IMG/VR virus record: IMGVR_UViG_3300005436_000012
DNA length: 64,000 nt
Source of the DNA: a virus
Strand: one strand, 5' to 3'
Within the stretch, counting starts at the first letter, position 1, and the number at the start of each line of letters is the position of its first letter. Under the pieces are notes generated by a model, which was given only the letters and a program-made list of their open reading frames with translations, did not search any database and was not told the DNA's origin. This document shows positions 3,550 to 27,438 of the stretch, one piece after another. The translations under genes were made by a program, and so were the position numbers.

Positions 3550-3558
3550 CGCCGCTGG

Positions 3559-4625: not shown

Positions 4626-4638
4626 ACAAGGAGACGCA

Positions 4639-5562: not shown

Positions 5563-5574
5563 GAGAAAAGCTAA

Positions 5575-5807: not shown

Positions 5808-5812
5808 GCCCT

Positions 5813-6558: not shown

Positions 6559-6596
6559 TCCAACGCTGGCAAGCGTCGAAAGAAAAAGAGACTAAT

Positions 6597-6956: not shown

Positions 6957-6986
6957 GCTGTTTCGCTTTGAAAAAGGAAATCTAAA

Positions 6987-7142
6987 ATGCTAGTGCTGAT
7001 CATCATTCTCATCCTGGTCTTCGGATTAGGCGGCGGCTATTACGGCCACACCAATTGGGGCACGCAAGGCGGTCTGGGCATCGGCGTCGGGACGGTGTTG
7101 CTGATCCTGCTGATCTGCTGGCTGCTGGGGCTGTTCCGATAA
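6987..7142 (+). CDS. small hydrophobic membrane protein (51 aa)
   Basis: MLVLIIILILVFGLGGGYYGHTNWGTQGGLGIGVGTVLLILLICWLLGLFR read directly from sequence; below the ORF-track size cutoff. Confidence 0.3.
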   Translation: MLVLIIILILVFGLGGGYYGHTNWGTQGGLGIGVGTVLLILLICWLLGLFR

Positions 7143-7772
7143 ATGGCGCGGCGAAATAAAACGGAAACCGCCGTGGCGCCGGCGACATCGGATCCCCGGC
7201 CTGGCGGAGTACTCGCGCAGGACTACGAGCTGGTCGACGTCTCCCAGTTGCAGGTGCACCCCGACAATCCCCGGCAGGGCGATATCGGCGCGATCGCCAA
7301 ATCGATCGCCATCAATGGATTCTTCGGCGCCGTCGTGGTGCAGAAATCCACCAGCCGGATATTGGCCGGCAACCATCGCTTCGAAGCCGCCAAGGGCGAG
7401 GGATTGAAGCAGATCCCGGTGATCTGGATCGATTGCGACGATGCCGCGGCCCTCAAGATCCTGCTGGCCGACAACAAATTATCCGACGATGCCGTGTACG
7501 ATGAAACGGCCCTCGCCACGCTGCTGATGGACGCCCGCAACCAGGGGAATCTGGAGGGAACGGGCTACACGGAAGTCGACCTGGGCGAATTGTTCAAACG
7601 CATGGGCGACGAGATCCTGAAGGCGGCCGAGCCGGAGGAAAAGAAATCAGGCGAAGGCCGGACGGAGCTCGAGTACCGGGTGATCGTCGAATGCGAATCG
7701 GAAGAACAACAGACGGAACTGCTCGAACGCTTCGAGGCCGAGGGTCTCGAATGCAAGCCACTCATTTCCTAG
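7143..7772 (+). CDS. ParB-like nuclease (ParB N-terminal domain) protein
   Basis: VDVSQLQVHPDNPRQ ... ILAGNHRFEAAK (ParB box-like); acidic C-terminus. Confidence 0.6.
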   Translation: MARRNKTETAVAPATSDPRPGGVLAQDYELVDVSQLQVHPDNPRQGDIGAIAKSIAINGFFGAVVVQKSTSRILAGNHRFEAAKGEGLKQIPVIWIDCDDAAALKILLADNKLSDDAVYDETALATLLMDARNQGNLEGTGYTEVDLGELFKRMGDEILKAAEPEEKKSGEGRTELEYRVIVECESEEQQTELLERFEAEGLECKPLIS

Positions 7773-7773
7773 C

Positions 7774-8981: not shown

Positions 8982-9374
8982 TCAAAAGAGGGGTTTCTGG
9001 GGATTGAGCTTCCCGAGCAATTCATCGTCGAGCCAAAACAACCCGAGCCGCCCGCGCATCGGGAAAAACTTTAACGGCTTTGGGTCGCTCAGGATCCAAG
9101 CGTAGGGGCCTTCAAACCAGGGGCTGGGATGTTGGAGCACGATTTCCCGCAGATTCACCTGGCCCACGATGCCGCCGCGCTCGAATTCGGCGGGCAGCGT
9201 GATGCCGCGTCCAAGGCACAGCCGCCGGATGCCGGCGACGTCCTTCGCCAGATGCGTACCGGCGTGAATCAGCAGCGGCCCGCGATGGCGCGTGTACCAA
9301 GTGCGGTTCTCCACCGACTTGTGGCCGTTGACGACCAGCCAGGCGTAGGGCTGTTTGATGCTGAGAATTTTCAA
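8982..9374 (-). CDS. ASCH domain protein
   Basis: MKILSIKQPYAWLVVNGHKSVENR N-terminus; paralogous to the N-terminal domain of the 19356-20090 protein. Confidence 0.55.
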   Translation of the reverse strand: MKILSIKQPYAWLVVNGHKSVENRTWYTRHRGPLLIHAGTHLAKDVAGIRRLCLGRGITLPAEFERGGIVGQVNLREIVLQHPSPWFEGPYAWILSDPKPLKFFPMRGRLGLFWLDDELLGKLNPQKPLF

Positions 9375-10258
9375 CGCGCGGCCTCGATCTGTGACCGCGT
9401 CCAGACCCAGCGGCGGCCGTGACGCACGGGCGCGGGCAGCCGTCCCTGTTTGAGTCTCATGTAGACAGTGGCCTGATGGATTCCCAATAGCATTCCCGCC
9501 TGGGCGGCGTCGACCACGTCACCCACTGACACGGATGCGACTGGAACACGCGCGGGCTTCGGCGGCCGCACAGCGCGTGGCTTTTGGTCAATCGCGCCAG
9601 ACATGGCGGAATTGACGGAATCGCACGGTAAAGGTACAAAAGAGCCGCCTGCCAGCAGTTCCATTTCGAGCGTCATGATGGCGGATCGCACGTTGAATTG
9701 ATTGTCTCGCAGCATGGCTTCGAAATCGGGCTCCGCACGTCCGGGCGCTTCATTGGCCCAGATGTGTTTGAGCAGCTGGGCGGCCGGCGCGAGTAGCGTT
9801 GGATCGTTCGAGAATTTGACCGTGCGGCAGCGGCTCAGAAAACGCGCCTCAAGCAGATTCGTTTCGTTGGCCGTGAAGATGAAAATAGTTCGAGGCGGCG
9901 CCGCGGTGGTGTCGAGCTTGGACAGGAACGCGAGCTGAGCCGCGCGGCTCATTTGGTCCGCTTCGTCCACGATCACGACATGGAAGCCGGAATTCATAGG
10001 GACGAACCAGCACGAGTGGCAGACTTTGTCCACCGTTTCTAGATCGCACGTGCGGGAGGCGATGTGATGCACTTCGCCGTTGATGGCTTGTGCGAAGGCC
10101 AGCGCCATGGTGGTCTTGCCCAGGCCGGAAGGCCCGAGCAGCAGCCAGGCCGAGGGATAGGGATCGCGTGCCAGCGCAGTCAGCAGGGCGCGCGGGCCGG
10201 CGAGTCCGGCGAAAGCGTCCAGCGTCATCGGACGGTATTTCTCGACCAGGGGCGTCAT
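9371..10258 (-). CDS. clamp-loader (RFC/DnaX)-like AAA+ ATPase with C-terminal Xis/MerR-type HTH
   Basis: EKYRP start motif, Walker A LLLGPSGLGKTT, Walker B VVIVDEAD, SRC motif; C-terminal LLGIHQATVYMRLKQGRLP HTH. Confidence 0.55.
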   Translation of the reverse strand: MTPLVEKYRPMTLDAFAGLAGPRALLTALARDPYPSAWLLLGPSGLGKTTMALAFAQAINGEVHHIASRTCDLETVDKVCHSCWFVPMNSGFHVVIVDEADQMSRAAQLAFLSKLDTTAAPPRTIFIFTANETNLLEARFLSRCRTVKFSNDPTLLAPAAQLLKHIWANEAPGRAEPDFEAMLRDNQFNVRSAIMTLEMELLAGGSFVPLPCDSVNSAMSGAIDQKPRAVRPPKPARVPVASVSVGDVVDAAQAGMLLGIHQATVYMRLKQGRLPAPVRHGRRWVWTRSQIEAAR

Positions 10259-11065: not shown

Positions 11066-11274
11066 AGCGTGACCTCGCAGCAGATGGGATCGGAAATGCC
11101 GGCGACCTCGGCCATCATTTCGACATGCTCGCGGCTTGATCCGCAATGTTCGCAGTGAACGACCGCGCCGTCGCACAGGCAGCAGTTTTCGCAACGATGG
11201 CATTCCGGGCATTCCTCAATCCCGCAATTGCAGTCGATGACGTCGGCGTGACAGCACCAGCACCAGGGGTTCAT
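11062..11274 (-). CDS. Cys-rich microprotein (about 14 Cys in 70 aa)
   Basis: MNPWCWCCHADVIDCNCGIEECPECHRCENCCLCDGAVVHCEHCG; ATGA overlap with the downstream gene. Confidence 0.4.
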   Translation of the reverse strand: MNPWCWCCHADVIDCNCGIEECPECHRCENCCLCDGAVVHCEHCGSSREHVEMMAEVAGISDPICCEVTL

Positions 11275-11991: not shown

Positions 11992-12020
11992 AGTATAGAT
12001 CACTGCGCAGTGAGTGACAA
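11992..12020 (-). promoter_or_regulatory. promoter/operator copy C: -35 TTGTCA, 17-nt palindromic spacer, -10 TATACT
   Basis: Reverse complement reads TTGTCA-CTCACTGCGCAGTGATC-TATACT; spacer palindrome TCACTGCGCAGTGA. Confidence 0.45.
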
Positions 12021-12260
12021 CGTCACAGCCTAGCGTGTTTTCCGTATGTTCGGCGCGGTCTGTAGGTGGTCTTACATAGTGTTTACCGCGCATTAGGCTT
12101 GATCTGCCGGATCGGTTAGACAGTCGACACGCGAACACGCGGGCATATGCGCGGACCGCATGGCGCATGGTCAAACGTCACGGCGCACAGGCCAAAAAAA
12201 GCCCAGCAGGCAAGGCGCATTTGCGCGATGCCCACCGGGCGAGTGCCGAAGTTGGAAAAT

Positions 12261-13898
12261 CTATGCGGCCGTCTTCGCGGCTTTGATCTCGGCGCGCTTT
12301 TCCTTGGCGAGTTTTTCCTTGGCGCGTTCCGCCGCCCGATGCTGCGCGGCCTTTTGTTTGGTCCGGAGCTGGGCTGCGACCTCGGCGCGGATGACTTCCG
12401 GTTTCACCTTCCAGCGTTTGGCCGCCTGCATCAAATCGTCCGGATGACCGCCCCCGGAATAATAGTGCAGCCCTTCGCCCAGCGCGGCTTCAAAAATGAG
12501 CCGCATCAGATCGTCAGAAGACGCGGCGCGCATCCAGTCCGAAATGGCGTTCTTGTCGCCCAGGTAGCCCTCTTCCTTGCCGGTGCGTTTCTTCGAAATC
12601 GCTTTGCGGGCGTCGCTGTTTCCCCAGCGCCCGAAAGCCAGCGCCGCGATCAATTGCAGATCGAGCGTTGAGGCTTTCTTCGGATCGAAGGCCGACGCCG
12701 TTTTATCGAGCACGATCTGCCGCGTCTCGCCGTCCACCTTGGAATCGAATTCGCGCTTCTGCTCGGCGGCCAGTTCCTTGGGCGATGAAACGCGCTGGCT
12801 GCTATAGCGGCCCGCGTGCATCGGACAACGCGGATTGGTGCACACGTCGAACTGAGCGCCCACGCGCTCGTCGCCGCGCACCACCAGGGCCGCTTTACCG
12901 AACGCGCATTTGCCTTTCTTTTTGACTTCGGTCCAGCGATTCGATCCGAGCACCGGCTTGCCGTCGAGCGTTCCGCCGGCGTTTTCGTAGGCGGTCGAAA
13001 CGAGGATCGGCTCCTCGCCGCGATTGGCCTCGGCCACCTGCCGGATCTGGATCTTGACGTAGGCCGATTTCTTGGCCTCGAAGCATTTGCGGTCCGTGCA
13101 GACGTCCTTCTTTTTGACGTCCGGAAAAAGCTCGGGCGTGAAGCCGGTCCGCTTCGGACAGACCGTGCAGGCTCCGGCGGCGGGAACCAGTTCGGCGTCA
13201 TCTTTGGCGAACGCCGCCTGCGCCAGGTCGAGCATCAATTCCTGGGTGACCCAGTCGCGCAGTTCGCGGGCGGTCTTGATTTTCTGCCAGTTTTCTTTGC
13301 TGGTGATGCGCTTGAGCGCGGTCTTCTGATCCTCGGGCGTCAGACGGGCGATGATATCCGCCATGGCGATGTTGATCACGCCCTCCCAGAAAGCCTTGCG
13401 GGATTCGGCGATCAATCGCAGCAGCGACAGGCGCTTATAGATGTAGGCCAGATCCTTGCCGGTTTTACTCGAAATGACATTGGCGTCATAGCCGGGCCGC
13501 TTCAATAATTCCTGATAGCCCGAGGCTTCATCGAGCGGATGCACATCGACGTGCTGGAGATTTTCAACCAGCAACACTTCGAGGAATGCGTCGTCCGTCA
13601 TGGGCTGGATAACGGCTGGCACGAATTCGAGCTTGGCGAGTTTGGCGGCGCGCAGACGGCGGTGGCCCGCTGCGATTTCGAAACCGTGAGCGCCCAGTAT
13701 TTCTTGTTCCGTAGGATCGAGCCAGGGCTTCGAGTCCCGGATCGGGCGGCAGAGAATCGGCGCCTTCACGCCGATGAGTTTGATATTCTCGGCCAGTTCG
13801 GCCAGTTTGACGGGGTCGAAATGCTTGCGATTGTTAAGCGGCGACTCGTGCAACTTCGCCACGGGGATCTGGGAGTAGACAACGGTGTGTGTGTTCAT
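12261..13898 (-). CDS. large ParB/Srx-domain protein (545 aa)
   Basis: N-terminal VAKLHESPLNNRKHFDP ... EIAAGHRRLRAAKLA; Cys-containing middle; Lys/Ala-rich tail. Confidence 0.65.
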   Translation of the reverse strand: MNTHTVVYSQIPVAKLHESPLNNRKHFDPVKLAELAENIKLIGVKAPILCRPIRDSKPWLDPTEQEILGAHGFEIAAGHRRLRAAKLAKLEFVPAVIQPMTDDAFLEVLLVENLQHVDVHPLDEASGYQELLKRPGYDANVISSKTGKDLAYIYKRLSLLRLIAESRKAFWEGVINIAMADIIARLTPEDQKTALKRITSKENWQKIKTARELRDWVTQELMLDLAQAAFAKDDAELVPAAGACTVCPKRTGFTPELFPDVKKKDVCTDRKCFEAKKSAYVKIQIRQVAEANRGEEPILVSTAYENAGGTLDGKPVLGSNRWTEVKKKGKCAFGKAALVVRGDERVGAQFDVCTNPRCPMHAGRYSSQRVSSPKELAAEQKREFDSKVDGETRQIVLDKTASAFDPKKASTLDLQLIAALAFGRWGNSDARKAISKKRTGKEEGYLGDKNAISDWMRAASSDDLMRLIFEAALGEGLHYYSGGGHPDDLMQAAKRWKVKPEVIRAEVAAQLRTKQKAAQHRAAERAKEKLAKEKRAEIKAAKTAA

Positions 13899-15028
13899 GA
13901 GAATAGATTTCCTTGGGCTACGCCGCCAAACAGCGGGCTATCGGTGATGGGTTGTTTGCCCGCGTCGAGTGGACGCGCGCTTTTCTGTGCGAATTCGGCG
14001 CTGACGCGCTGGGCGTCGATGCGCGATTGATACTCAGGGTCAGGGACGCCGGCATCCATGCCGTAATTCGGATCCGGGTCAATGCGAACGGCAGGTCGAT
14101 AGGCGATCACGCGGCAGGCGGGCTTCACGAGGCGAATCAGTTTTCCTGGGCAGCCGGTCTTCTCGAAAGATCCAGAAGGCAGATCCTCGACGTCGGCTCC
14201 GATGCCTTCGATCCAGGACCGGAATTCCTCGGCCTTGGCCGTTGATCGGAAGAAGCCGCTCGGCCCCATCATGGCCACCAGCAGGCCGCCCGGCTTTAGA
14301 AGTTTGTAAGCGTGGACCACGTGGTCGATGTCCTGGAAGTTTTCAAAAGGCGGATTCATCAGCACGCGATCATAGAGACCGCTCTCGGGGCTCACGTCCA
14401 GGAAATCGTGCTCGGGTAACAGCGTGTGATGTTTGAGCGTCAGGATCTCCCGCAAGGACGGATTGATTTCGACCACGTCGACCAGCGCGCCAAGATCGCG
14501 GGCCCAGTCGGCGATCGCGCCCGCGCCCGCTGAAGGCTCCAGCACTTTCATTTCGACCCCGACGTCGGCCAGCTCCAGCATTCGCCGGACCGCCGCAGGC
14601 CGCGAAGGAAAGAAGCCGGGGATGTCGCGCAGCTTCACGTCGACCTCCAGGCGATGCAGCCGTTCTTTGGCCGGATCGACCGGGGTGAGCAAGCTGCGGA
14701 TGGCCTTCTGCAATTCGCTCAGTTCGCGCTGCGGCGCGTTGGGATATTCTTCCCGTTCCCGGTCGCAGAACAAAAGGCCGCGGACCGGCACGTCGACGTC
14801 CGACACATAGCGGATCGCCTGGAAGATGTCCGGCAGCGCGCGCGAGTCATGCAGGTCCGCCACCTTGCGCAGAACCTCCTGCATCGTTTGGAGCGTGCGG
14901 CCCTCGCGACGCATATGCTGGTCCTCCTGGGCGCGTTTGCGCGTGTTGGTCAGCCGTTCGCGCAGGCAGTTGTCGATTTTGGGTTGCAGTGCGTCCGCCT
15001 TTTTGCGGAGACTGGTAGATGTGTTCAT
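13895..15028 (-). CDS. N6-adenine DNA methyltransferase (gamma-like motif order)
   Basis: Motif I VLEPSAGAGAIA followed about 40 aa later by motif IV NPPF; start placed at the internal Met (MNTSTS) with an AGGAG RBS. Confidence 0.7.
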   Translation of the reverse strand: MNTSTSLRKKADALQPKIDNCLRERLTNTRKRAQEDQHMRREGRTLQTMQEVLRKVADLHDSRALPDIFQAIRYVSDVDVPVRGLLFCDREREEYPNAPQRELSELQKAIRSLLTPVDPAKERLHRLEVDVKLRDIPGFFPSRPAAVRRMLELADVGVEMKVLEPSAGAGAIADWARDLGALVDVVEINPSLREILTLKHHTLLPEHDFLDVSPESGLYDRVLMNPPFENFQDIDHVVHAYKLLKPGGLLVAMMGPSGFFRSTAKAEEFRSWIEGIGADVEDLPSGSFEKTGCPGKLIRLVKPACRVIAYRPAVRIDPDPNYGMDAGVPDPEYQSRIDAQRVSAEFAQKSARPLDAGKQPITDSPLFGGVAQGNLFS

Positions 15029-15366
15029 GAGGATGCTCCTTTCAGTTCCAACTGCTGTGCGGGTGGGACGGGCGTTAAGGTGTTTAGCCACTCGTATCTG
15101 AGGATCATCGAGTCGCATTGGCCGGTGATTGCCGGCCAATGCACTTCGAAACCGTTGTCTAGCGCGTAGACGCGGGCGTTTCTCAGATGGAGGCGGCTGG
15201 TGCCGGATCGGTATTCTGATCCGGACATGAGCACGCTGTAGGTGGTCGCTTGAATCACCGTGCGGCCTTGATTCTTGACGCCGTCGGTCGAACGCCAAAC
15301 CAGTTTCAATTGGACGCCGGGTTGCAAACGCCGGACGAGCTCGGCGCGGGTCATAGCGGTTTTCAT
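15025..15366 (-). CDS. hypothetical protein
   Basis: 113-aa ORF, coupled overlaps. Confidence 0.4.
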   Translation of the reverse strand: MKTAMTRAELVRRLQPGVQLKLVWRSTDGVKNQGRTVIQATTYSVLMSGSEYRSGTSRLHLRNARVYALDNGFEVHWPAITGQCDSMILRYEWLNTLTPVPPAQQLELKGASS

Positions 15367-15857
15367 GAGACCTCCTTGGCATGTTCCGCGATGCAGCAGT
15401 CATCCGAATCGCACATCAGGCACCAATCGTCGGTTTCTTCGCCGAGCTGCTTGCGCAATTCGAGCGCTGTCCGGGGCGGGTTCATGTCGGCGTCCAGTCG
15501 ATCCGCGCACTCGCGTAGTTCGGTGGCGGTCCAAGCTACGATGCCGGTCACGTAGTCGCGCGCGCGGCCCACCAGCGCGGCCGCTTCGTCGGCATCGTCG
15601 GCCTGCACGAAATCGTAAAGCGATTGATTCTCATCGCTGTAGTAGCTGGTGACGAGAAACTTGTCGCGTTCGGGCGTCACGATTCCCGGTTCGTCCTTGA
15701 CGATGAATTCCCATTCGTCACCGGGCAGCGGCGTCATCACGAACCACTTGGACGCCTTGATGAGATTGGAAGCGAATAGGGCCGCAATAGCGGCCCCGAT
15801 CATGCGCAACATTAGATGGTCCTTGTACGGGCCGGTTGTGATTTTGGCCAGGGTCAT
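15363..15857 (-). CDS. hypothetical protein
   Basis: 164-aa ORF. Confidence 0.4.
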   Translation of the reverse strand: MTLAKITTGPYKDHLMLRMIGAAIAALFASNLIKASKWFVMTPLPGDEWEFIVKDEPGIVTPERDKFLVTSYYSDENQSLYDFVQADDADEAAALVGRARDYVTGIVAWTATELRECADRLDADMNPPRTALELRKQLGEETDDWCLMCDSDDCCIAEHAKEVS

Positions 15858-15858
15858 G

Positions 15859-16626
15859 TCACGCCGCCTTTCTGGCAGCGAGTGACGCCTTGAGCGCGGC
15901 CATGATATCGACCGCCGCGGCTTGCGGCTTCTGGGCTTCGGGTTTGGGCGGCGCTGCGCCGGATTCCTTGGATGCGATCAAGGCCAGAATCTTTTCGCGA
16001 TAGCCATCCGAGAATTTCGAGGCATCGAACGTCCCCGAATAGGCCGCAATCAGACTGGAAGCCAATTCCGATTCCGCCTCGCCGATCTGGCCCAGGTCGG
16101 TGCGGTACTCTTCCGTCGCGCGGGCTTCGTGCGCGTAGAAAAGCGTGTGCGCCACGATGCCCGATTTCCCGGCGCGGATCGCCAGGACGTGTTCGCGGCT
16201 GGACATGGTGATTTTGGCGATCGCCACCGCGCCCGAACGCTTCAGCCCGTCATAAAGCAGGGCGTAAGCCTTCGAGCCGCCCTCGTCGGGCGCGATCCAG
16301 TATGCGCTTTCATAGTTGACCGGATCGACCTGAGCGATCGGAACGAATTCCGTAATCTCGGCCACGTGCGCAGACGACGGTGCCAGGGCCTTGATTTCTT
16401 CCGGCGTCACGATCACCCAGCCTTTGCCGGTCTTGTAGCCCTTCACCACGTCGGCGGGAGCGATATCGGAGCCGTCCGATTTGACGTAGGACTTCCGTCC
16501 CACCGGTTCGAGATCCGATTTCCGGAGTTCATTGAAGCTGACCGATTCACTGCGGGCGGCACATGCTAATTTCACGGGCACGCTCACGAGTCCAAATGCG
16601 ATGTGGCCTTTCCAAACGCTTGCCAT
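15859..16626 (-). CDS. ku: Ku (non-homologous end-joining DNA-end-binding protein)
   Basis: MASVWKGHIAFGLVSVPVKL is the canonical Ku N-terminus; Ku-core-like length (256 aa). Confidence 0.8.
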   Translation of the reverse strand: MASVWKGHIAFGLVSVPVKLACAARSESVSFNELRKSDLEPVGRKSYVKSDGSDIAPADVVKGYKTGKGWVIVTPEEIKALAPSSAHVAEITEFVPIAQVDPVNYESAYWIAPDEGGSKAYALLYDGLKRSGAVAIAKITMSSREHVLAIRAGKSGIVAHTLFYAHEARATEEYRTDLGQIGEAESELASSLIAAYSGTFDASKFSDGYREKILALIASKESGAAPPKPEAQKPQAAAVDIMAALKASLAARKAA

Positions 16627-16705
16627 TTTATTTGCTCTTTTCTCCCTCTGCATTGATTCGGGCTGGGGACCGGCTGGTTTGAAAAACCCAGGCTGCATTA
16701 CGAGC

Positions 16706-16735
16706 GAGTATATCTGACTGCGCAGTCAGTGACAA
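16706..16735 (-). promoter_or_regulatory. promoter/operator copy A upstream of ku: -35 TTGTCA, 17-nt spacer, -10 TATACT
   Basis: Reverse complement TTGTCA-CTGACTGCGCAGTCAGA-TATACT; perfect 16-bp palindrome CTGACTGCGCAGTCAG at 16714-16729. Confidence 0.5.
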
Positions 16736-16897
16736 CACCGCATAGAATACGCGCTGTGCAATGATCGAAAAGCTGGTCTGTAGGTGGTCTTACACTCAAC
16801 CGCCGCGTACCAGCCTCGATTTACCGGGTCGGTTTCGAGACTGACACGCGACGTCTAGGGCAGGTCGGAGGATTGCACAGAACGCGCGGCTATGCGT

Positions 16898-17323
16898 CTA
16901 GGCGGGTGGTTTGGTGTTCGTCTCGCTGAGCACTTGCGCAATGCGCACGTAATCTTCGGTTGACACACCGAGGCGCGGCTCGGTTTTGACGGCGTTGAAA
17001 GTTCGCTCAAACGCCAGCCATCGGCAATCGGCCAGCGCCACGATGAGCGGATCTTCCAGCGCCGTCACGCGCGCGTTCCAGGCATCGATCAGACCGCTGC
17101 CGCACGCGCCCGCGATGTAGGCGGGCTCGACGACATTGTTAACGTAGTCGCGCAGGATCGCGCGTCGCGGTTTGCCGGTGATGATACGCTGCATCATTCC
17201 GGCCAGTCCTCCGAGCTGCGCAGCGAGCGCGATCGAGCGGGCTTTGTCTCGGGCGGGCAGTTGTTCCCATTCCCAATCGAGCGAAATGAGCAGACAAGCA
17301 GCCGGACGTTCTTTCAGTTTCAT
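16898..17323 (-). CDS. hypothetical protein
   Basis: Internal Met (MKLKERP) with an AGGAGA RBS; ATGA overlap with the ligase stop. Confidence 0.4.
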   Translation of the reverse strand: MKLKERPAACLLISLDWEWEQLPARDKARSIALAAQLGGLAGMMQRIITGKPRRAILRDYVNNVVEPAYIAGACGSGLIDAWNARVTALEDPLIVALADCRWLAFERTFNAVKTEPRLGVSTEDYVRIAQVLSETNTKPPA

Positions 17324-18369
17324 TTGGCTTCTCCTTTGAATTTCAGTTGATCGATGGTGCACTCTGACGGTTCGATGTCTTCCCGCACGGCGAGAAAAAC
17401 GGACTGGCTGAGCGACCCGGATCGATGCGCGTAAAGATAACGCACTTCGACCACGGCCCCCACGGGCGGCGCGGTCTTGTTGGGCGGGATCGTGCAACGT
17501 CCCAGCTCGGTGCCGTCAAAAAGCTTCATGTTGAAACTGGATTGCACGTTGTGAGCCGCCACGATGACCGAAGCCGTCGCGACGAATTTGTATTTGAGAG
17601 CCGGTCCGCCTGAATTGGGCCGTCCCGGTGTGTAGGGCGCAATGGCGTATTTCAGCACCACGCCTTCCCTGCCCTCGGATTTGCAGCGGGCGAACAGCGC
17701 GAGTTTGGAATCCGGATCGGTCGCCGTTTCCACCACGCGGATGCCGGATTGCGAGGATCCGAAAAGCGAATGCAGCAGCCCCAGGCGATCGCTGTAACGG
17801 GACGCGCGCATGTCGGCGAGTCCGGCCAGCAGATCGAACGCCCAGATGATGTCGCCGATAATTTCGCCGTCAATGATGAAGGCCTCATACGGGCATTCGA
17901 GAGCGGCTTTGACGATAGTGCCGGGCAGCGTGTTGTTTACCCTGCCCGTCCGCGAATAGCTGGTTAGTCGGCCATCGCGCTTTTCTAAGATGATCCGGTT
18001 GCCGTCGAATTTCTCCTGGAAATAAATATCGGGATCGGGCGCGAGTGAAAGCAATTCCGCGTCCGTGATTTCGTTCAACAGCATGGGCTTCGGAACCAGC
18101 CTCGGACCGCATGGCTCGGGCTTGGCATCGAAGCCGACCGTTTCGAGCGGCGTCGCGTCTTCGCCGGGCGTATAGCCCTTGGCGAGTTTCTCGTTCAGCT
18201 TCGACTGATAAAGCGCGTTCGCGGCCGTCTCCGATGCGGCAGCCACGGTTTTGGTTTGCATCGTTCCTCCGCGCGGCCCCCAGGCGAATTGCACGGTGCC
18301 GTTATCGACGGAGGCGGTATAGACTTTGTCCGACCTCGAATCTTTGTAGTACAGGGTTTGGGTTTTCAT
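17320..18369 (-). CDS. ATP-dependent DNA ligase with N-terminal WGR-like module
   Basis: Motif I KFDGNR, III FIIDGEII, IV WAFDLL, V EGVVLK; N-terminal FAWGPRGG (WGR-like). Confidence 0.8.
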   Translation of the reverse strand: MKTQTLYYKDSRSDKVYTASVDNGTVQFAWGPRGGTMQTKTVAAASETAANALYQSKLNEKLAKGYTPGEDATPLETVGFDAKPEPCGPRLVPKPMLLNEITDAELLSLAPDPDIYFQEKFDGNRIILEKRDGRLTSYSRTGRVNNTLPGTIVKAALECPYEAFIIDGEIIGDIIWAFDLLAGLADMRASRYSDRLGLLHSLFGSSQSGIRVVETATDPDSKLALFARCKSEGREGVVLKYAIAPYTPGRPNSGGPALKYKFVATASVIVAAHNVQSSFNMKLFDGTELGRCTIPPNKTAPPVGAVVEVRYLYAHRSGSLSQSVFLAVREDIEPSECTIDQLKFKGEAK

Positions 18370-18557
18370 TTCGTTGCTCCTTCCGAAACTTCCGCCATGA
18401 AGTCGTCACTGCCGCGATTGAAATTGTTGACGGCAATCGCGACGGCGCACGTCAGGCTATTGAACCGCGAAGAAGCCAGCAATGCTTCCACTTGTTGATC
18501 GGTGACCTTAGCGCCGATTTTGGTTTTGACGGTGAATGTTGCCTCGTAGAGTTTCAT
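18366..18557 (-). CDS. hypothetical protein
   Basis: 63-aa ORF. Confidence 0.3.
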   Translation of the reverse strand: MKLYEATFTVKTKIGAKVTDQQVEALLASSRFNSLTCAVAIAVNNFNRGSDDFMAEVSEGATK

Positions 18558-19156
18558 TTCGTTGGTCCTTTCAGTGCGTATTCGGCGGCGTTTTCAAGAC
18601 ACGCGCAGCCGATCATTTGGTTGTGGCAGACTGGGCAGCGCTCAACGTCGCAGCCCGGATGATGATAGTGGCCGATCTTGGCGCCGCAATCGCCGCAGCG
18701 GCCCGTTCCAGGGTCGTATCCGCCCGCGTAGGGCTGGCGGTCGTAGCGCTTGCCATCGATCACGAACCAGGTCTTGATGCAGCCGTCGACTTCGAGCATG
18801 AAACCGTGGCACGTGTCGCACTTCGCGCCGTGATTGGTGGCGTCCGTTTCTGGCGACGGCACGATTCCGGCCCGCGCGTCGAGCACAGCGGCGGTCATAT
18901 CGGACGTGAATTCGTACCAGAGATTGGAATGCACGTGGACGCAGTAGGAAGTCGGTCCGGTCTGCTGCAACTTAGTATGTCGCCCGATGCGCAGTTCGTA
19001 TTTGAGCCATTCGGCGGGCGGCTTGACGGCATTCGGCCCGCCCATCGGCTGGCCGGTGAAATGGTTGTCGAGCGAATAGCATTTGAAGTCCCGCGCGACG
19101 GCCAGGATGGCGTCGATCAGCTTCGTCCGATTCTTGGCGATGGTCTTGAGGTTCAT
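18554..19156 (-). CDS. hypothetical protein with Cys/His-rich C-terminal half
   Basis: CDTCHG...RCGDCGAK..HYHHPGCDVERCPVCHNQMIGCAC. Confidence 0.4.
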   Translation of the reverse strand: MNLKTIAKNRTKLIDAILAVARDFKCYSLDNHFTGQPMGGPNAVKPPAEWLKYELRIGRHTKLQQTGPTSYCVHVHSNLWYEFTSDMTAAVLDARAGIVPSPETDATNHGAKCDTCHGFMLEVDGCIKTWFVIDGKRYDRQPYAGGYDPGTGRCGDCGAKIGHYHHPGCDVERCPVCHNQMIGCACLENAAEYALKGPTK

Positions 19157-19359
19157 ACAAAACTCCTTCGCAGCCCAAGCAGCAGGCTGCGCACTTCATC
19201 GAGCGCCGTGATCTGGCCGAGCGTCCATTGAGCCATCTCCCGCTCCTGCGGGTTGGTAATTCGCTGCAATTCGTGAGCCAGGGACCCGGCGCGGAGCGCC
19301 AGTAGCTTTCCTTCGACTAGAGCGAGCAATTCTTTTCGAGTGACCGGTTTGCTTTTCAT
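19153..19359 (-). CDS. hypothetical protein
   Basis: 68-aa ORF. Confidence 0.3.
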   Translation of the reverse strand: MKSKPVTRKELLALVEGKLLALRAGSLAHELQRITNPQEREMAQWTLGQITALDEVRSLLLGLRRSFV

Positions 19360-20090
19360 AGCGATCCTTTCATGTGGTTGTGTTCGAGAATTTCAAAGGC
19401 GGCTTGGACGCGGCGAAATGCCGCTGCGTCGCCGCCCAAATCGGGATGATGTTGACGGGCCAGAGCGCGATAGGCGCGCTTGATTTCTTCCCACGTGGCG
19501 CTGATTAGCACGCCCAGGATGTCGTGCGGGGAATCGTCTTTCAAGTGGGCGCGCGCGGCGTCGATGCCCATGCGCCAGTTGAATGCGGCCTGCCATTGCG
19601 CGGTGGATCCGCGCGGGCCGTCGTGGGTCTTGTAACCGGACATGAAATCGCGTTTCATGGTCGAGCCTTTCTGTCGGGGTGATTTGGCTGTGGGTTTGGG
19701 CGTGAAGCGCGCTAGAATCAGTCCGGTGATTTCGGAATCGAATTCGTAATCGAAAAACCCGAGCCGCCCGGTGAGTTCAATGAAATCGAGCGGCTGGGCT
19801 TCAGCCAGTACGAATCCGTACTCGCCTTTGAACCAGACGCTCGGATGAGCGCTGACGCAGTCGGTCAGGATCACGCGGCCCACGATGCCGCCGCGCGCAA
19901 AATGATTGGGCAGCAAGATGCCGCGCTGCCCGCAGAGAATCCGGATCGATTCCATTTCCGGATCGAGCCGTTTGCCGGCGTGGATCGCGACCGGTCCCCG
20001 GTGATTGGTCGACCAATCGCGATTCTCGATATCCTTGTGGCCGTTAGCAATGAGCCAGGCCCACGGTTGACGAACAGACAACACTTTCAT
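19356..20090 (-). CDS. ASCH domain + C-terminal J-domain (DnaJ-like) fusion
   Basis: MKVLSVRQPWAWLIANGHKDIENR (ASCH); DILGVLISATWEEIKRAYRALARQHHPDLGGD (J-domain with HPD); start at the internal Met. Confidence 0.55.
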   Translation of the reverse strand: MKVLSVRQPWAWLIANGHKDIENRDWSTNHRGPVAIHAGKRLDPEMESIRILCGQRGILLPNHFARGGIVGRVILTDCVSAHPSVWFKGEYGFVLAEAQPLDFIELTGRLGFFDYEFDSEITGLILARFTPKPTAKSPRQKGSTMKRDFMSGYKTHDGPRGSTAQWQAAFNWRMGIDAARAHLKDDSPHDILGVLISATWEEIKRAYRALARQHHPDLGGDAAAFRRVQAAFEILEHNHMKGSL

Positions 20091-20341
20091 TTGCGCTCCT
20101 CGATCTTGGCTTCGTGCGGACGTTCGTAGCCCGGCAGCCCGAGCGCGTCGAGATGTTTGCAATGGCGGTGAATGCGCCACGCGGGGCACGAGCATCCCCA
20201 GTGCCGTTTGTCTTTGTTCTGCGAGATGACGTAAAGCCGATCGGAAGATTCCGACGCGATATGAAATCGATTGGTCCATTGCGCGTTGTCGGCTAACTTG
20301 ACTTCGCGGCGGACGTACAATACGGGCGTGTTGTTCGGCAT
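20087..20341 (-). CDS. hypothetical Cys/His protein
   Basis: MPNNTPVLYV...HWGCSCPAWRIHRHCKH; GGAG close to the ATG; sits directly under promoter B. Confidence 0.4.
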   Translation of the reverse strand: MPNNTPVLYVRREVKLADNAQWTNRFHIASESSDRLYVISQNKDKRHWGCSCPAWRIHRHCKHLDALGLPGYERPHEAKIEERK

Positions 20342-20355
20342 GCTGATCTCCTTGA

Positions 20356-20384
20356 GAGTATATCTGACTACGTTGTGACTGCCA
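20356..20384 (-). promoter_or_regulatory. promoter/operator copy B: -35 TTGGCA, 17-nt spacer, -10 TATACT
   Basis: Reverse complement TTGGCA-GTCACAACGTAGTCAGA-TATACT; half-sites CTGAC/GTGAC; coordinates may be off by 1. Confidence 0.4.
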
Positions 20385-20439
20385 ACACGGCGCAGAAAAC
20401 GCGCTGTGCAATGATTTGAAAGGCGGGCTTTGCAGCCCG

Positions 20440-21807
20440 CTAGATTAAACGGATCACCTGTCCGAACGGCGGCATGTGATCGATCCAGGCGGGCGTGACC
20501 CATAGCACTGGGTAGTCGGGCTCGACCGGCGTATCAGACGATTCCAGATCCGTCAGATACACGGCGACGCGCGGGTGAATGTCGCGCTCCTCGACCCAAT
20601 CGAACACGGGTTGCAGGCGCGTTCCGCCGCCGCCCATGAATTCGAGCTTCACGTCATCGTCGGGCGTGAATTCGGCGGTGCCCTGGACGCGCGCGTCACA
20701 GTAGACCGCGTGCAGGCGTTCGGGCTTGGCTTCCTGGATGATCGAGGTCAGTTCAGCGGCGAATTCGTCCAGCATCTCTTGCGAGACCGATGCGGACGTG
20801 TCGATGCCGGCGACGATCTCGCCGACCGTGTCGTGGATGGTACCGGGCAGATAGATCCCGCTCGAAATGAAACGGCGGTTGGGTGCGGTCCAGGAATAAT
20901 CGCTGGGCGCCGACTGCACGATGAATTCGCGCAGCACGGATTTCCAATCGACGATCGGTTCCCGTGAGCGTTTCAGTTCGCGCTGCAGGCCTCCGGGCAG
21001 TTCGCCCGAAGCGCGCGCGACGGCCGCTGCCTGTTCGGCGGCGATCGCCCAGTCTTCTTGCGTCATGGCTTCGTCGGCCTCCGGTTCCCCGGCCTCGACC
21101 CCGTCCACGAATTCGCCGGTCGGACATCCGGGCATCGAACCACCTGGGGTTGAACCACCGGGCGTGGATCCGACTGTCTGACTCGCGCCGTCGTTGGCAT
21201 CGGGCGTCGAATCGTCAGTGGGATCATCCCCGCCGTTGCCGTCGGCTGTAGCGTCGCCGTCTTCCTCCTCTGATGTCGATCCATCATCGGAATCCTCGGA
21301 CGCGTCTGAGCCGTCCTCTTGATCGTCTTCGTCTTCGTCGCCGTCTTCGTCCTCTTCGGGCTCCGGCTCAGGTTCGGGTTGCTGCATGGGCGGCTGTTCG
21401 GCCGCTTTGCGTTTGGCATAAATCTGCTCGGCGTACATGCCCTTGAATTCGGGGTCATTCAAAACGCCCGGCGGCAGTTCGAATCCGAATTCAACCAGCA
21501 CCGGATTGATGGCGTGGTCGCAGGCGATGTTCCACTCCATCGGATCGCGCGCGCCACGGCGGTAGGGATGCAGCAGAGCGCAGTGCCAAACCTCGTGGGC
21601 GATGACGCCCAGCAATTGACGTTCGGGCAGGCTGCGGGCGAATTCGGGATTGAATTTCAAAACTGTCCCGTTGGTCTGCATGGTTTCAATCGATGGATCC
21701 GGCATCAGCTTCAGCCGCATGGCCAGCGATCCGAAGAAGGGCTGTTCGAGCAGGAGGCGCGTGCGGGCACGCGCCATCATGAGTTCGTCTTGATTCATGT
21801 TTGTCAT
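20440..21807 (-). CDS. VWA-domain protein with HExxH metallopeptidase-like N-terminal region and acidic linker
   Basis: HEVWH zinc motif; long Asp/Glu-rich low-complexity linker; the DUF2201-type VWA assignment for the C-terminal half rests on overall layout and MoxR partnership, not a spelled-out motif. Confidence 0.55.
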   Translation of the reverse strand: MTNMNQDELMMARARTRLLLEQPFFGSLAMRLKLMPDPSIETMQTNGTVLKFNPEFARSLPERQLLGVIAHEVWHCALLHPYRRGARDPMEWNIACDHAINPVLVEFGFELPPGVLNDPEFKGMYAEQIYAKRKAAEQPPMQQPEPEPEPEEDEDGDEDEDDQEDGSDASEDSDDGSTSEEEDGDATADGNGGDDPTDDSTPDANDGASQTVGSTPGGSTPGGSMPGCPTGEFVDGVEAGEPEADEAMTQEDWAIAAEQAAAVARASGELPGGLQRELKRSREPIVDWKSVLREFIVQSAPSDYSWTAPNRRFISSGIYLPGTIHDTVGEIVAGIDTSASVSQEMLDEFAAELTSIIQEAKPERLHAVYCDARVQGTAEFTPDDDVKLEFMGGGGTRLQPVFDWVEERDIHPRVAVYLTDLESSDTPVEPDYPVLWVTPAWIDHMPPFGQVIRLI

Positions 21808-22682
21808 TGCAGATACCCCGACATTTTGCTGAGGATCTCGTCGGCGCGGCGCGCGGTGTCTTCCCGCACGATGGCTGAGTCTCGGAGCTCCTCGGGTGAA
21901 TGGGCGGTCAGTTCGCGGCGGATCCGCTTACAGAACTGATCGATGGCAGGATCTTCGGTGATGTTGAGCAGTGGCACGATGTCGAGCAGGTCGATGATGT
22001 TAGACACCAGCGAATCGCGAAAGGCGCTTTGGACGGGCGTGTCTTCGGTTGCGTCGGTGTAGGCGTGCAGGCGTTCCGACATTTTGCCGACCACGGATGC
22101 AAGGCGCGTCCAGATATCTTTCACCGCGAATTCGATGGTGGACTGGACGTTCGATTCAATCTGCGATTTGATGCGCGCGGTTTCTGCGTCGCCCAGGTCG
22201 ACGCGAAAATCAACCGCGTCCGGAATCGGATCGACCGACATGCAAAAAGCGAATTTGGATTCGATCTTGGATGGGCTCGGATATTCTTCCGGCTTGAAAA
22301 GCCCGTTCAGCAGACGCCGGGCATCCTCGACGTATTGAGCATAGTTGGGTTGGAACACGTTGCGGAATTCATTCCAGAAGGCGGTCTGGTGAGCCTTCAT
22401 GGTTTGGTTATATTTGAAGTACATGGGCGACGAAAGAATCCGTTTTCCTACGTCGGACCAAGGCAGCGTTAGTGTGTAGTGATCGTCTCGGGCGGCGCCG
22501 GCAATCTTTTGCAGGGAGGCCAGCGCTTCCCGGGCGAGCAAGCTCTTTCGATATTTGCCCATGGTCGGATCGGACGAATGGGTGCGGGCCACTTCGTCTG
22601 AAATCTTCTTGTCGGACTTGTAGCCACGCCATTGGCTGATGTTGAGCGACACCAGCATGGCTGATTCATTGATTCGATGCAT
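21804..22682 (-). CDS. hypothetical protein between the MoxR and VWA genes
   Basis: 292-aa ORF, translationally coupled to both neighbours. Confidence 0.4.
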   Translation of the reverse strand: MHRINESAMLVSLNISQWRGYKSDKKISDEVARTHSSDPTMGKYRKSLLAREALASLQKIAGAARDDHYTLTLPWSDVGKRILSSPMYFKYNQTMKAHQTAFWNEFRNVFQPNYAQYVEDARRLLNGLFKPEEYPSPSKIESKFAFCMSVDPIPDAVDFRVDLGDAETARIKSQIESNVQSTIEFAVKDIWTRLASVVGKMSERLHAYTDATEDTPVQSAFRDSLVSNIIDLLDIVPLLNITEDPAIDQFCKRIRRELTAHSPEELRDSAIVREDTARRADEILSKMSGYLQ

Positions 22683-22722
22683 TGTGATTTCTCCTTGGAT
22701 TGAATTCGTTTCGGATTGGACG

Positions 22723-23802
22723 TCAGAACGTAACGTCGGAATGTTGAACGGCCCACTTGGTGAATTCGGGCGTGGACTGGAGTGAAGCGTCGCGCGTGAC
22801 GGCGTCGCGAATGGCGTAGACGTTGTACTCGACCGGTAGCCGTTCGAGATACGTCACGATGCGCGGGAAGTTTTTGTCGGACGCCCGGCGCGCTAACGCA
22901 GCCGAGATGGCATACAATACGTTGGCCTCCGTTGGCACCATCGCCTTTTTGGGATCGAGCAGGATGGCGTCGATGTTGGGCAGGCTGCGGAACAGTCTCA
23001 GGAACGCCGAATATTCGACCGCCGCGGTTTCGCCGACCGCGCCAGAGAACAGAGCGTGTTCCACTTTCGGCGCGGGGCTTTGAGCGGTGATCTGGCTCAC
23101 GAATTCCCAGGCTCGAGGATTGGGCGATACGCGCTGCTTGCGGTCGTATTGGTGAAGCAGTTCGGGGCGGAAGCGCAGGAAGGCGATCGTGACCGGCTCC
23201 CAATTGCGCTGCACGGCGAACTTACAGACGTCATCCAGATTCGTGCCCGCATCCAGATGAATGAAGCGCGCGAGCAATGCGCTGGACATTTTGGCGGCGC
23301 CGATATCGTTATCGTTGACGGCCGCTGCGGGGATCCACGTGGCGGGCATTTTGTACTCGCCAAGTTCGCCCGATAGCACGAGCGAGAAGCAGCCGTTGCG
23401 GACCATCTCCGTCCCGCGATTGATTTCGTCCAGGAAGAAAATGCCACCGCGCGGGTCGCGCGGCAGGAATTCAGGCTGCGCCCAATGCGCGCGGCCGCCG
23501 CCGTTGACTACCGGCAAGCCTCTGAGATCGACCGCGTCGAGCAGCGCGGCGCGAACGTCGCGAAACCAGGGACGGTCGGTAGTCGGATTGCCGGCGGCAT
23601 CGTGCAAATCGCCCGAGGCGTCGACGGAGCAACCGTAGCTTTCGGCGTACATCTGATCGGCGACGGATCGGGTGATATCCGATTTGCCGATTCCAGGGTC
23701 GCCGTGGATCATCGGCGCGCGGTGCGCGGCGAACAGAGTCTTCAGCGCCATCCCGAGTTCGGACGGCTTCAAGGCGTCATTGAGTTGGATCGTCGGTGTC
23801 AT
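22723..23802 (-). CDS. MoxR-family AAA+ ATPase
   Basis: Walker A IHGDPGIGKS, Walker B FFLDEINR; start at the internal Met (MTPTIQL) with an AGGAGA RBS. Confidence 0.7.
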   Translation of the reverse strand: MTPTIQLNDALKPSELGMALKTLFAAHRAPMIHGDPGIGKSDITRSVADQMYAESYGCSVDASGDLHDAAGNPTTDRPWFRDVRAALLDAVDLRGLPVVNGGGRAHWAQPEFLPRDPRGGIFFLDEINRGTEMVRNGCFSLVLSGELGEYKMPATWIPAAAVNDNDIGAAKMSSALLARFIHLDAGTNLDDVCKFAVQRNWEPVTIAFLRFRPELLHQYDRKQRVSPNPRAWEFVSQITAQSPAPKVEHALFSGAVGETAAVEYSAFLRLFRSLPNIDAILLDPKKAMVPTEANVLYAISAALARRASDKNFPRIVTYLERLPVEYNVYAIRDAVTRDASLQSTPEFTKWAVQHSDVTF

Positions 23803-23915
23803 TGCTTGTTCTCCTTTTTGGAAATCTGAATTGTTTTGGGTTTGCCGATCGTGCAGAAAACGACGGTGCAGGCGATCAGCAGGAAACTGGCGAGCAGGGC
23901 GAAGTAGGGAATCAT
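23799..23915 (-). CDS. small single-TM protein (about 39 aa)
   Basis: MIPYFALLASFLLIACTVVFCTIG; weak RBS. Confidence 0.2.
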   Translation of the reverse strand: MIPYFALLASFLLIACTVVFCTIGKPKTIQISKKENKQ

Positions 23916-24255
23916 GTGAGGTTTCTCGGTTTGATTTCGGTGGATTGGTTTGGACGTCTCGCCCGGTCGGGCTAAACTGCGCGTCCTGGTCAGTTGCATA
24001 CTTGTTGGCTCGTTTCATCTGTCATCCGCTTCGCTGCATCGGGCCTCTACTTTCGCGTTGGGGATTCTAGCGGCGTCATCGCGACGCGGCGCTCCTACAC
24101 TCGGCGATTGTTCGAGGCGGCTTGCTGTCTAACGCCCTGCGGCTCAGAAACTTGCCACTTCGTTATTCGTACCGTCGCGGTTCAAACTGCGAATCGTTTC
24201 GGTTTGATTGTCAAAGAACTGCGTTTCGTATCTCTCAAATACGTAACATCTATAG

Positions 24256-24284
24256 TATGACACTGACAGCGTAGTCAGTGCCAA
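24256..24284 (-). promoter_or_regulatory. promoter/operator copy D (weaker: -35 TTGGCA, 19-nt spacer, -10 CATACT)
   Basis: Reverse complement TTGGCA-CTGACTACGCTGTCAGTGT-CATACT; half-sites CTGAC-N6-GTCAG at 24263-24278. Confidence 0.3.
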
Positions 24285-24406
24285 CACGCAAGGAACTATA
24301 TTGCGCGCGGTTTCAAGGACTTAGCCATGCGCGATTCGCGCTGTAGCGCGTTTTCATGCGTTTACGGCGATACGACCGCGCTGTGGCGCGCGCTGCACAG
24401 CGATAA

Positions 24407-24437
24407 TTGACAGTCACTGCGCACTGGATGTTATACT
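24407..24437 (+). promoter_or_regulatory. rightward (late) promoter: -35 TTGACA, 19-nt spacer, extended -10 TGtTATACT
   Basis: TTGACAGTCACTGCGCACTGGATGTTATACT; spacer holds an operator-like GTCACTGCGCA half-site; ATG at 24450 about 12 nt from the -10. Confidence 0.4.
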
Positions 24438-24449: not shown

Positions 24450-24668
24450 ATGCCGCGAGGAAAAAAGCCCATCTCTCCGGAAGCATCCGATGCCGCGCGA
24501 CAATTGCAGGCGTTGAGAAAGCACCGCCGGGGCGGCGGCTCGGTCGCGCGCGTGCCGCACGTCAAAGGCCTGCCGATCGGATCGCGCAAATCGATCCGGG
24601 GCCAAGGCTACGCCTGCATGTGTCTCCGCTGTAGAATCGCTCGCGGGCATTACAAGCCCAAAAAATAA
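24450..24668 (+). CDS. small basic protein, first gene of the rightward operon
   Basis: 72 aa, Arg/Lys-rich, C-terminal CMCLRC. Confidence 0.3.
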   Translation: MPRGKKPISPEASDAARQLQALRKHRRGGGSVARVPHVKGLPIGSRKSIRGQGYACMCLRCRIARGHYKPKK

Positions 24669-27286: not shown

Positions 27287-27438
27287 TATTCCGGCGTTCG
27301 CGCTCTGAAGCATTTGTATTCTTCAGATCTCGCCTCGATATCTAAAGCATGGGCCATCCTATCCAGAATCCTCCTGGGAGCCTAGTCAGCTCGTCTTCGG
27401 GGTGGCCTGTCATTTCCAAACCCTGCCGCTATGGCGAG

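Follow-up and report, generated by a model that had tools for sequence, protein, structure and literature searches.

Promoter copies and gene arms of the phage

The viral sequence IMGVR_UViG_3300005436_000012 from IMG/VR, analyzed here over a stretch of 64,000 nucleotides (the window), contains five copies of a promoter whose spacer carries a dyad-symmetric sequence. All copies share a TTGNCA -35 box, a spacer of 17 or 19 nt and a -10 box reading TATACT or CATACT. Four of them are located on the minus strand. Copy C (12020-11992) reads TTGTCA-ctcactgcgcagtgatc-TATACT with the 17-nt spacer CTCACTGCGCAGTGATC; copy A (16735-16707), TTGTCA-ctgactgcgcagtcaga-TATACT, harbors the perfect 16-bp palindrome CTGACTGCGCAGTCAG in its 17-nt spacer; copy B (20385-20357) consists of TTGGCA-gtcacaacgtagtcaga-TATACT, also spaced by 17 nt (GTCACAACGTAGTCAGA); and copy D (24284-24254), TTGGCA-ctgactacgctgtcagtgt-CATACT, has a 19-nt spacer (CTGACTACGCTGTCAGTGT) and an extended -10 box (TGt). 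The fifth copy, R, lies on the plus strand (24407-24437) and reads TTGACA-gtcactgcgcactggatgt-TATACT, with a 19-nt spacer (GTCACTGCGCACTGGATGT) and TGt as extended -10 box. An earlier note, made from the sequence alone, had described four leftward copies with a dyad in the spacer as well as a rightward promoter, and all of these are present. The pattern TTGKCA-N17-TATACT occurs three times in the window where 0.08 matches are expected, and three matches were reached in none of 100 shuffled sequences. The four spacer strings quoted at that time were correct, those of B and D having been given from the plus strand. The coordinates of C were right, whereas those of A and B were off by one and the -10 box of D ends at 24254, not at 24256.

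Copies A, B and C match the consensus hexamers at 10 of 12 positions with a 17-nt spacer, and the 19-nt spacers of D and R come with a TGt directly before the -10 box; all five have the characteristics of sigma-70-type promoters, D and R by way of the extended -10 box. The sequences support the assignment of A, B, C and D as near-consensus sigma-70-type promoters, each of which heads a gene block. Downstream of D, a leader of approx. 445 nt is followed by genes for a MoxR-like ATPase, a 292-aa protein and a DUF2201 protein. The block headed by A codes for Ku, a 164-aa protein, a methyltransferase and a ParB-type protein. R is positioned upstream of the gene of a 72-aa basic protein (ATG at 24450), which precedes the terminase genes. 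Terminator-like sequences precede B and C; the one between the DUF2201 gene and promoter B is a hairpin at 20423-20440 (minus strand; GCGGGCTGCAAAGCCCGC followed by CTTTC), of which L162, the closest relative, has an equivalent.

The copies thus belong to two gene arms. The leftward arm runs from 24018 down to approx. 8600 and begins with the MoxR-like ATPase, the 292-aa protein, the DUF2201 metallopeptidase/VWA protein and an 84-aa SWIM-like protein. These are followed by an ASCH/DnaJ protein, an ATP-dependent ligase, Ku and the methyltransferase and, at the end, by a 545-aa ParB/Spo0J-type protein, small proteins and a clamp-loader-like AAA+ protein with an HTH_17 tail. The rightward arm comprises the 72-aa protein, the small and large terminase subunits and structural genes in this order. 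Positions 1-8937 contain additional plus-strand genes including an extracytoplasmic function (ECF)-like sigma factor at 6004-6558.

Annotated phages gave no megablast match to the window, and at the protein level their terminases, from cyanophages and Klebsiella phages, are at most 31% identical to that of the window. Terminase relatives in genomes (46-58% identical) were found almost exclusively in metagenome-assembled genomes of Bryobacterales, Solibacteraceae and other Acidobacteriota. Because the relatives reside in such genomes, the host of this uncultured phage is most likely an acidobacterium. The source contig is non-circular at 72 kb and the closest relative, L162, is found on a 104-kb contig, which indicates that the genome is incomplete; the wording of the earlier note, that every early promoter would be occluded by one regulator, is therefore unsupported. 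The 8.3 kb by which the source contig exceeds the window contain no further promoter copy.

Symmetry and enrichment of the spacer dyad

The exact form of the motif that had been proposed as operator, CTGAC-N6-GTCAG, is enriched in the window (two occurrences, 0.05 expected), but with two mismatches allowed it is found at chance level (26 versus 22.9). The CTGAC and GTCAG arms proved to be specific to this phage, and the conserved unit is instead a 10-bp core, AC-N2-CG-N2-GT. The dyad is situated in the middle of the spacer, approximately from -26 to -17, and its phage-specific extension TSAC-N2-CG-N2-GTSA occurs five times versus 0.36 expected. Four of these five sites are the leftward promoter spacers. 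The remaining one, TCACGCCGACGTCA in minus-strand reading, is located at 11238-11251, within an intergenic stretch of 58 nt and 30 nt ahead of the ATG at 11212; no promoter hexamers surround it, and it may be a chance occurrence.

Symmetry was evaluated over the 16-mer of each spacer, where chance pairing amounts to 26% per pair. In A, all eight pairs are complementary, so that the palindrome is perfect as claimed in the earlier note; C has seven of eight, D six, and B and R five each. In R the left half of the spacer is intact and the right half is degenerate. The spacer positions that are invariant in all five copies are themselves symmetric (T2/A15, A4/T13, C5/G12 and C8/G9). Furthermore, C differs from A by a symmetric exchange, G to C on one side and C to G on the other, which retains a palindrome of 14 bp in C. 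Between the -35 and -10 boxes there is a dyad-symmetric site that is more conserved than neutral DNA.

The copies are cassettes at mosaic junctions

The resemblance between the copies extends beyond the hexamers. A and B have 91 nt in common at 74% identity, and A and C share, besides the promoter, approx. 125 nt upstream of it. The conserved region upstream of A (16736-16885, minus strand) includes GTAAGACCACCTACAGACC and is approx. 69% identical to the region upstream of C (12021-12215, minus strand), which starts after a T-run terminator-like sequence and is homologous to L162 14375-14650 as well. Between C and a promoter of L162 named P2', the similarity spans the T-run terminator-like sequence, 190-270 nt of conserved upstream region and the promoter itself; GGCTAAGTCCTTGAAACCGC, a part of this upstream region, recurs upstream of D. 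Two-sequence folds of the region upstream of A and C yielded nothing convincing on either strand. The sequence TGCACAGCG is found upstream of the -35 box in A (16752-16760, minus strand), B (20402-20410, minus strand) and R (24394-24402, plus strand). Three occurrences compare with 0.76 expected, the distance to the -35 box varies, and the sequence may be a second protein site.

The gene order of the window and of L162 differs exactly at the cassettes. In L162 there is no promoter at the position of B, the Ku-to-ParB block behind A is absent and the SWIM gene is located elsewhere. Judging from these alignments, the copies are paralogous cassettes composed of terminator, conserved upstream region and promoter at mosaic junctions, and duplication accounts for their origin.

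This raises the alternative that the promoter is a mobile cassette without a separate operator, which was recently duplicated or subjected to gene conversion at the junctions where modules are shuffled, and that the palindrome is baggage or a recombination or structural feature. The long tracts shared by A and B and by A and C, the common terminator, upstream region and promoter of C and P2', and the coincidence of gene-order differences with the cassettes are all in line with it. We nevertheless regard it as unlikely, on account of the symmetric changes that retain the dyad and of the promoters found in related phages.

The spacer is selectively conserved in related phages

Two related loci, L166 and L168, were found through their proteins: the L166 ATPase is 74% identical to that of the window, and the ParB, Ku and ligase proteins of L168 are 55-58% identical. 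L166 contains three promoter copies of the form TTGACA-nnn(A/T/G)CACCGCTGTACG(A/T)-TATACT. L168 contains four that read TTGACA-C(A/T)AACAACG(T/C)TGT(A/G)C(G/A)G-TATACT, and a fifth, degenerate copy ahead of its homologue of the 72-aa protein. Within each of the two sets the hexamers are invariant and 13 of 17 spacer positions are invariant, whereas the flanks are invariant at only 2-4 of 40 nt upstream and 3-4 of 31 nt downstream. As the similarity ends at the edges of the 29-bp promoter, the spacer is under selection. A duplication tract would not be expected to end at the hexamers; the spacer is thus, on the evidence of these alignments, functionally constrained, and the dyad is not a by-product of duplication alone. 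Selection on the spacer in turn favors a bound dimeric factor.

The dinucleotides AC, CG and GT occupy spacer positions 4-5, 8-9 and 12-13 in register in the window, L166 and L168, although the shared proteins of these phages are only 54-74% identical to those of the window. This shared register speaks against the cassette alternative. Comparison of ACTGCGCAGT in the window with ACAACGTTGT in L168 revealed that both inner pairs have changed and that each sequence is a perfect 10-bp palindrome. A further locus, L167 (ATPase 68% identical), has two plus-strand promoters at 5378 and 7728, TTGACA-CACT(C/G)T(C/G)TA(C/G)ACCGTGT-TA(G/A)(A/C)CT with CTTTTCTA in common upstream, in which the spacer is conserved but unrelated. 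A spacer that is uniform within a genome, distinct between genomes and symmetric would be the pattern of a dimeric regulator with element-specific recognition.

More distant sequences did not contribute. None of 160 loci fetched via terminases of 46-58% identity had the motif or any repeated promoter, and these loci are too distant to help. The exact window-type promoter pattern had no match in viral or metagenome contigs, nor had the L166/L168-type pattern in viral contigs. A relaxed core pattern produced 30 matches, each the only copy in a phage with a G+C content of 36-56%; we judged these to be generic strong promoters and not relatives.

Proposed operator function and its alternatives

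We favor, with middling confidence, the reading that the spacer dyad is a single-site operator for a dimeric regulator, which would occlude the strong host-type promoter with which each module begins. The five sites would be paralogs of a single strong promoter cassette of the host type (sigma-70/sigma-A), placed by the phage at the heads of the accessory-arm modules (D, B, A and C) and at the start of the rightward arm (R). From its place between the two hexamers, a dimeric DNA-binding protein on the dyad would keep RNA polymerase off the promoter, and a single regulator would close down all modules at once through solitary operators at dispersed sites. Since the promoters are already near consensus, an activator would not be needed. 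Each phage has its own version of the spacer, as expected if specificity co-evolves with the regulator. While the sites, their positions and their selective conservation are observed directly, binding of a protein, repression and the identity of the binder are what we infer from them; its gene may lie in a part of the genome that was not sampled, or the binder may be among the weak candidates of the window or come from the host.

The promoters, the selection on the spacer and the in-register core therefore speak for the repressor/operator arrangement put forward in the earlier note, and several observations weigh against it. Each promoter has a single operator and there are no cooperative arrays. 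The window copies clearly arose by duplication, as the A/B and A/C tracts described above demonstrate, and part of their likeness is therefore ancestry. In L162, whose ATPase and DUF2201 protein are 87% and 72% identical to those of the window, the equivalents of D and R lack the right half-site and retain none and two of the five core pairs, respectively. The D-type promoter of L162 matches D without a difference up to the end of TTG-CACTGACTAC and once more from TGTCAT on, yet six of the eight bases of the right half-site differ while the bases flanking it are identical. P2' of L162 retains five of six core bases. R-type promoters have degenerate right halves in all three phages. Pfam and PHROG searches detected no repressor of the Cro/CI, Xre, ribbon-helix-helix or MerR type among the open reading frames (ORFs) of the window, where small ribbon-helix-helix proteins could escape detection, and none is among the Pfam families on record for the genes of the 8.3-kb contig extension. 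No repressor-type gene is thus apparent across the 72-kb source contig, just as the earlier note had stated for its stretch.

The last point against an operator comes from the host side, where a promoter carries the dyad core in register. The rpsA promoter of two related Solibacteraceae metagenome-assembled genomes (L091 135-163 and L101 403-431) reads TTGACA-AGC-ACC(G/C)CGCCGT-CCGC-TATATT. It is the only other match to TTG-N6-AC-N2-CG-N2-GT-N4-TA-N3-T in 2.25 Mb of Bryobacterales/Solibacteraceae loci, in which shifted registers of the core pattern had no match. Because the rpsA core is in register, recognition by RNA polymerase or by a host factor has to be considered alongside a phage repressor: the dyad could be an intrinsic promoter element or the site of a global host factor, and the phage would copy a class of strong host promoters. 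The failure to find a phage regulator agrees with this explanation. We consider it quite unlikely all the same. rpsA is a single independent example found post hoc, and five tRNA upstream regions from the same acidobacterial set contained nothing similar. Dyad symmetry is not expected for a polymerase contact; moreover, the spacer versions are phage-specific and the conserved spacer of L167 is unrelated.

With regard to host factors, the LexA box of Acidobacterium capsulatum, GTTC-N7-GTTC, does not match the dyad. A LexA motif applicable to Bryobacterales did not turn up, and PMC4951493 gives none for Acidobacteria.

Candidate binding proteins in the window

If the dyad is an operator, four proteins of the window are weak candidates for its binding. 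The one named in the earlier note is the 72-aa basic Cys/His protein encoded by the first gene after R (24450-24668, plus strand; ..HVKGLPIGSRK..GYxCMCxxCRIARGHY..). It is conserved in L162 and present as a tandem duplicate next to the integrase in L168; it belongs to no Pfam or PHROG family and has one distant homologue in the protein collection. The 84-aa SWIM-like protein (20087-20341, minus strand) with the CxC..CxH motif WGCSCPAWRIHRHCKH is the first to be encoded downstream of promoter B. Its homologue in L162, with which it shares 80% identity, is encoded inside an operon without a promoter of its own.

The third candidate, the 545-aa ParB/Spo0J/Noc-type protein (12261-13898, minus strand), is encoded by the last gene before cassette C and could alternatively bind the 16-bp palindrome. 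It contains ParB_N and HTH_ParB domains, and its best solved relatives are Spo0J, ParB, Noc and KorB. On plasmid RK2, KorB silences promoters from OB sites. By analogy, the phage ParB protein might load at the 16-bp palindrome as at a parS or KorB site and silence the promoters. The perfect palindrome of A has the size of a parS site. L162, which also lacks right half-sites, has no ParB homologue within ±10 kb, and no close one was found in IMG/VR viral contigs including its own 104-kb contig; L168 possesses both ParB and the promoter family. Against these correspondences, L169 and L172 encode ParB homologues (53% and 47% identical) and have no such promoters within 10 kb, whereas the promoters of L166 come without a ParB gene in the 15 kb covered. 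In L166 and L168 the dyad measures no more than 10 bp, no partner ParA is encoded beside the ParB gene, and the dyad sequence is unlike the known parS, Noc-binding and OB sites. We consider silencing by ParB very unlikely.

The fourth candidate is the AAA+ protein encoded at 9371-10258, which ends in an HTH_17 (MerR-superfamily) domain scoring 27.5 bits against a threshold of 27. Together with the 19-nt spacers of D and R, which contain the dyad, it would permit a different mechanism: binding of a MerR-type regulator within the over-long spacers would activate both divergent promoters by untwisting the DNA. Such activation is extremely improbable. Promoters regulated in this way have sub-optimal spacers of 19-20 bp, and in A, B and C, three of the five copies, the spacing is the optimal 17 nt. 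The TGn extended -10 boxes of D and R make up for their poor spacing, degenerate right half-sites are found in R and in the L162 equivalents of D and R, and the HTH_17 domain is barely above its threshold.

The window also encodes an RNA polymerase subunit that might read the promoters, namely the ECF-like sigma factor (6004-6558, plus strand; Sigma70_r2, E 1.7e-10; phrog_1740). The whole promoter including the spacer is conserved, and L166 carries a sigma factor gene too, so that the 29 bp could be conceived as the recognition sequence of a phage sigma factor. However, TTGACA and TATACT are boxes of housekeeping sigma factors and not of the ECF type, and the 243-aa sigma factor of L166 is not detectably related to that of the window. 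An 80-nt repeat, GTTCGCGCTCTGA .. CATTTGTATTCT .. CGATATCT, lies at 421-501 and 27296-27343 (plus strand) directly ahead of two genes. It is the better candidate for such a factor and possibly serves as its late promoter. We hold recognition of the dyad promoters by the phage sigma factor to be most improbable.

Leaders and a candidate twister ribozyme

According to the earlier note, two copies would give rise to leaderless or nearly leaderless mRNAs. The leader of about 10 nt attributed to B was not confirmed: the ATG at 20341 follows the -10 box by 15 nt, is preceded at a distance of 6 nt by the Shine-Dalgarno sequence AAGGAGA and opens the gene of the 84-aa protein, not the DnaJ/ASCH gene. 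At C, an ATG (11985) is indeed present 6 nt after the -10 box, but its reading is doubtful, as is shown below. A leaderless Ku mRNA starting with the ATG at 16698, 8 nt after the -10 box of A, was considered and rejected. The true start of Ku is at 16626, where the protein begins with MASVWKGH as in L168, and is preceded by AGGGAGA, which gives A a leader of approx. 75 nt. Ku and the ATP-dependent DNA ligase (WGR and ligase domains) are encoded at 15859-18369 on the minus strand, and this in a phage whose host phylum is Gram-negative. Mycobacteriophages were the only annotated phages with a match to Ku; L168 has the same Ku/ligase pair.

The Ku leader contains a candidate type-P1 twister ribozyme (RF03160) at 16704-16640 on the minus strand, which starts 3 nt after the -10 box of A and encloses the ATG at 16698. 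The match covers the full length of the model (1-68/68), and the UAA, GC.GCC, CGGUCCC.AGCCCG and AA.GC.GAGGG blocks are all present. With 51.4 bits it scores below the Rfam gathering score of 67.2, the E-value for the whole window being 1.4e-8. Pairing is complete in P2 (4/4) and nearly so in P4 (5/6), while stem P1 is weak (2/4). Minimum-free-energy folding of the candidate was uninformative (z = 0.17), which would be expected of a pseudoknotted fold. No other twister copy was detected in the rest of the window or in L162, L166 and L168.

Twister ribozymes cleave at a U-A step, which here presumably is U16700/A16699, 7-8 nt after the -10 box of A. The predicted scissile step coincides with the expected transcription start of A. 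From this arrangement, transcripts of A may begin at or near the cleavage site and read-through transcripts from upstream may be cut there. According to a review (PMC6765202), self-cleaving ribozymes of bacteria frequently occur in the vicinity of phage genes, and processing of polycistronic transcripts is one possible role.

At C, the ATG aligns with the UAAUGCAGCC block of the twister candidate, and the rest of the ribozyme core is absent. As this ATG falls into a ribozyme-like block, both the 64-aa acidic ORF and its 'leaderless' start are uncertain.

The overlap of promoter A with the ribozyme can be combined with the rpsA promoter into a joint reading, in which the dyad is a lineage-wide promoter element read by a host factor or polymerase and the overlap at A is deliberate. 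Several phages of Acidobacteriota might have this element in their early promoters, and the host in at least one strong promoter, that of rpsA. At A, initiation and the self-cleavage of read-through transcripts would lead to the same 5' end of the Ku mRNA, with a triphosphate in one case and a hydroxyl in the other, and the arrangement would act as a natural 'ribozyme insulator' at the module border. Taken as a whole, this combination is distinctly improbable.

The leader downstream of D (23803-24253, minus strand) extends from the promoter to the ATPase start at 23802 and is 74% identical to L162 7634-7997. It contains a 38-aa hydrophobic ORF (23915-23799). The two leaders share a common fold in which 16 of 64 pairs are changed on both sides, a count that is biased because the structure was derived from the same two sequences. 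The leader may be a structured regulatory RNA.

Further repeats in the window

Two repeats lie apart from the promoters. At 38466-42836 (plus strand), the gene of a 1456-aa protein consists of approx. 16-30 diverged repeats with a period of approx. 110 nt (WHPEIQRPRFD..RQYLYP). A perfect 63-nt tandem duplication is found at 63516-63641; the ENA version of the contig is approx. 170 nt shorter there, and variable copy number or an assembly effect may be the cause.

Comparison with known regulatory systems

Very little knowledge exists of how phages of Acidobacteriota regulate their genes, or of the promoters of this phylum. Should the dyad be an operator, it would define a regulon of a whole arm comprising end-joining by Ku and ligase, ParB, methyltransferases and the MoxR/VWA proteins. 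The 16-bp palindrome would then be a simple bait for the regulator, and the phage-specific versions could be used as immunity markers in metagenomes. If it is read by the host, it would represent a new promoter feature in a major soil phylum. The candidate ribozyme next to promoter A is a natural example on which the processing of transcripts at the borders of operons can be tested. It resembles RF03160 in matching the full-length model with all conserved core blocks, and differs in its score below the gathering threshold, in the weak P1 stem and in a 5' end that abuts a -10 box.

Operators inside a core promoter are known from phage P22, in which the Arc operator lies between the -35 and -10 boxes of Pant, and from OR and OL of lambda and 434. 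As in these systems, a dyad-symmetric site is situated between or over the hexamers, where a bound dimer would exclude RNA polymerase. In contrast, no cognate repressor gene was found here, and there is one site per promoter at five dispersed promoters instead of cooperative arrays.

Regulons with dispersed operators are formed by C1 of P1, by gp71 and the stoperators of mycobacteriophage L5 and by KorA and KorB of RK2. They have in common with the phage promoters a short site repeated at many operon heads in element-specific versions, through which one protein could control all units. The sites of P1 and L5 are asymmetric, whereas those described here are symmetric and reside in promoter spacers, the lone intergenic site at 11238-11251 being the sole exception. 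Stoperators act inside transcription units in an orientation-dependent manner; the spacer location of the dyads sets them apart. KorB sites are located upstream of or away from promoters, which also distinguishes them from the promoter dyads.

MerR-family promoters share the dyad in the spacer and, with respect to D and R, the 19-nt spacing. They differ in that three of the copies presented here are optimally spaced and that no MerR-family regulator was identified. T4-type phages carry promoter-stem-loop (PeSL) regulatory cassettes. Like these, the copies are repeated early-promoter cassettes at the borders of variable modules, which are the mosaic junctions between relatives; they differ in composition, since each combines a terminator with 190-270 nt of conserved upstream sequence and a promoter whose spacer contains a conserved dyad. 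The design is thus a known regulatory one, found here with a new motif in a new and little-known group of phages.

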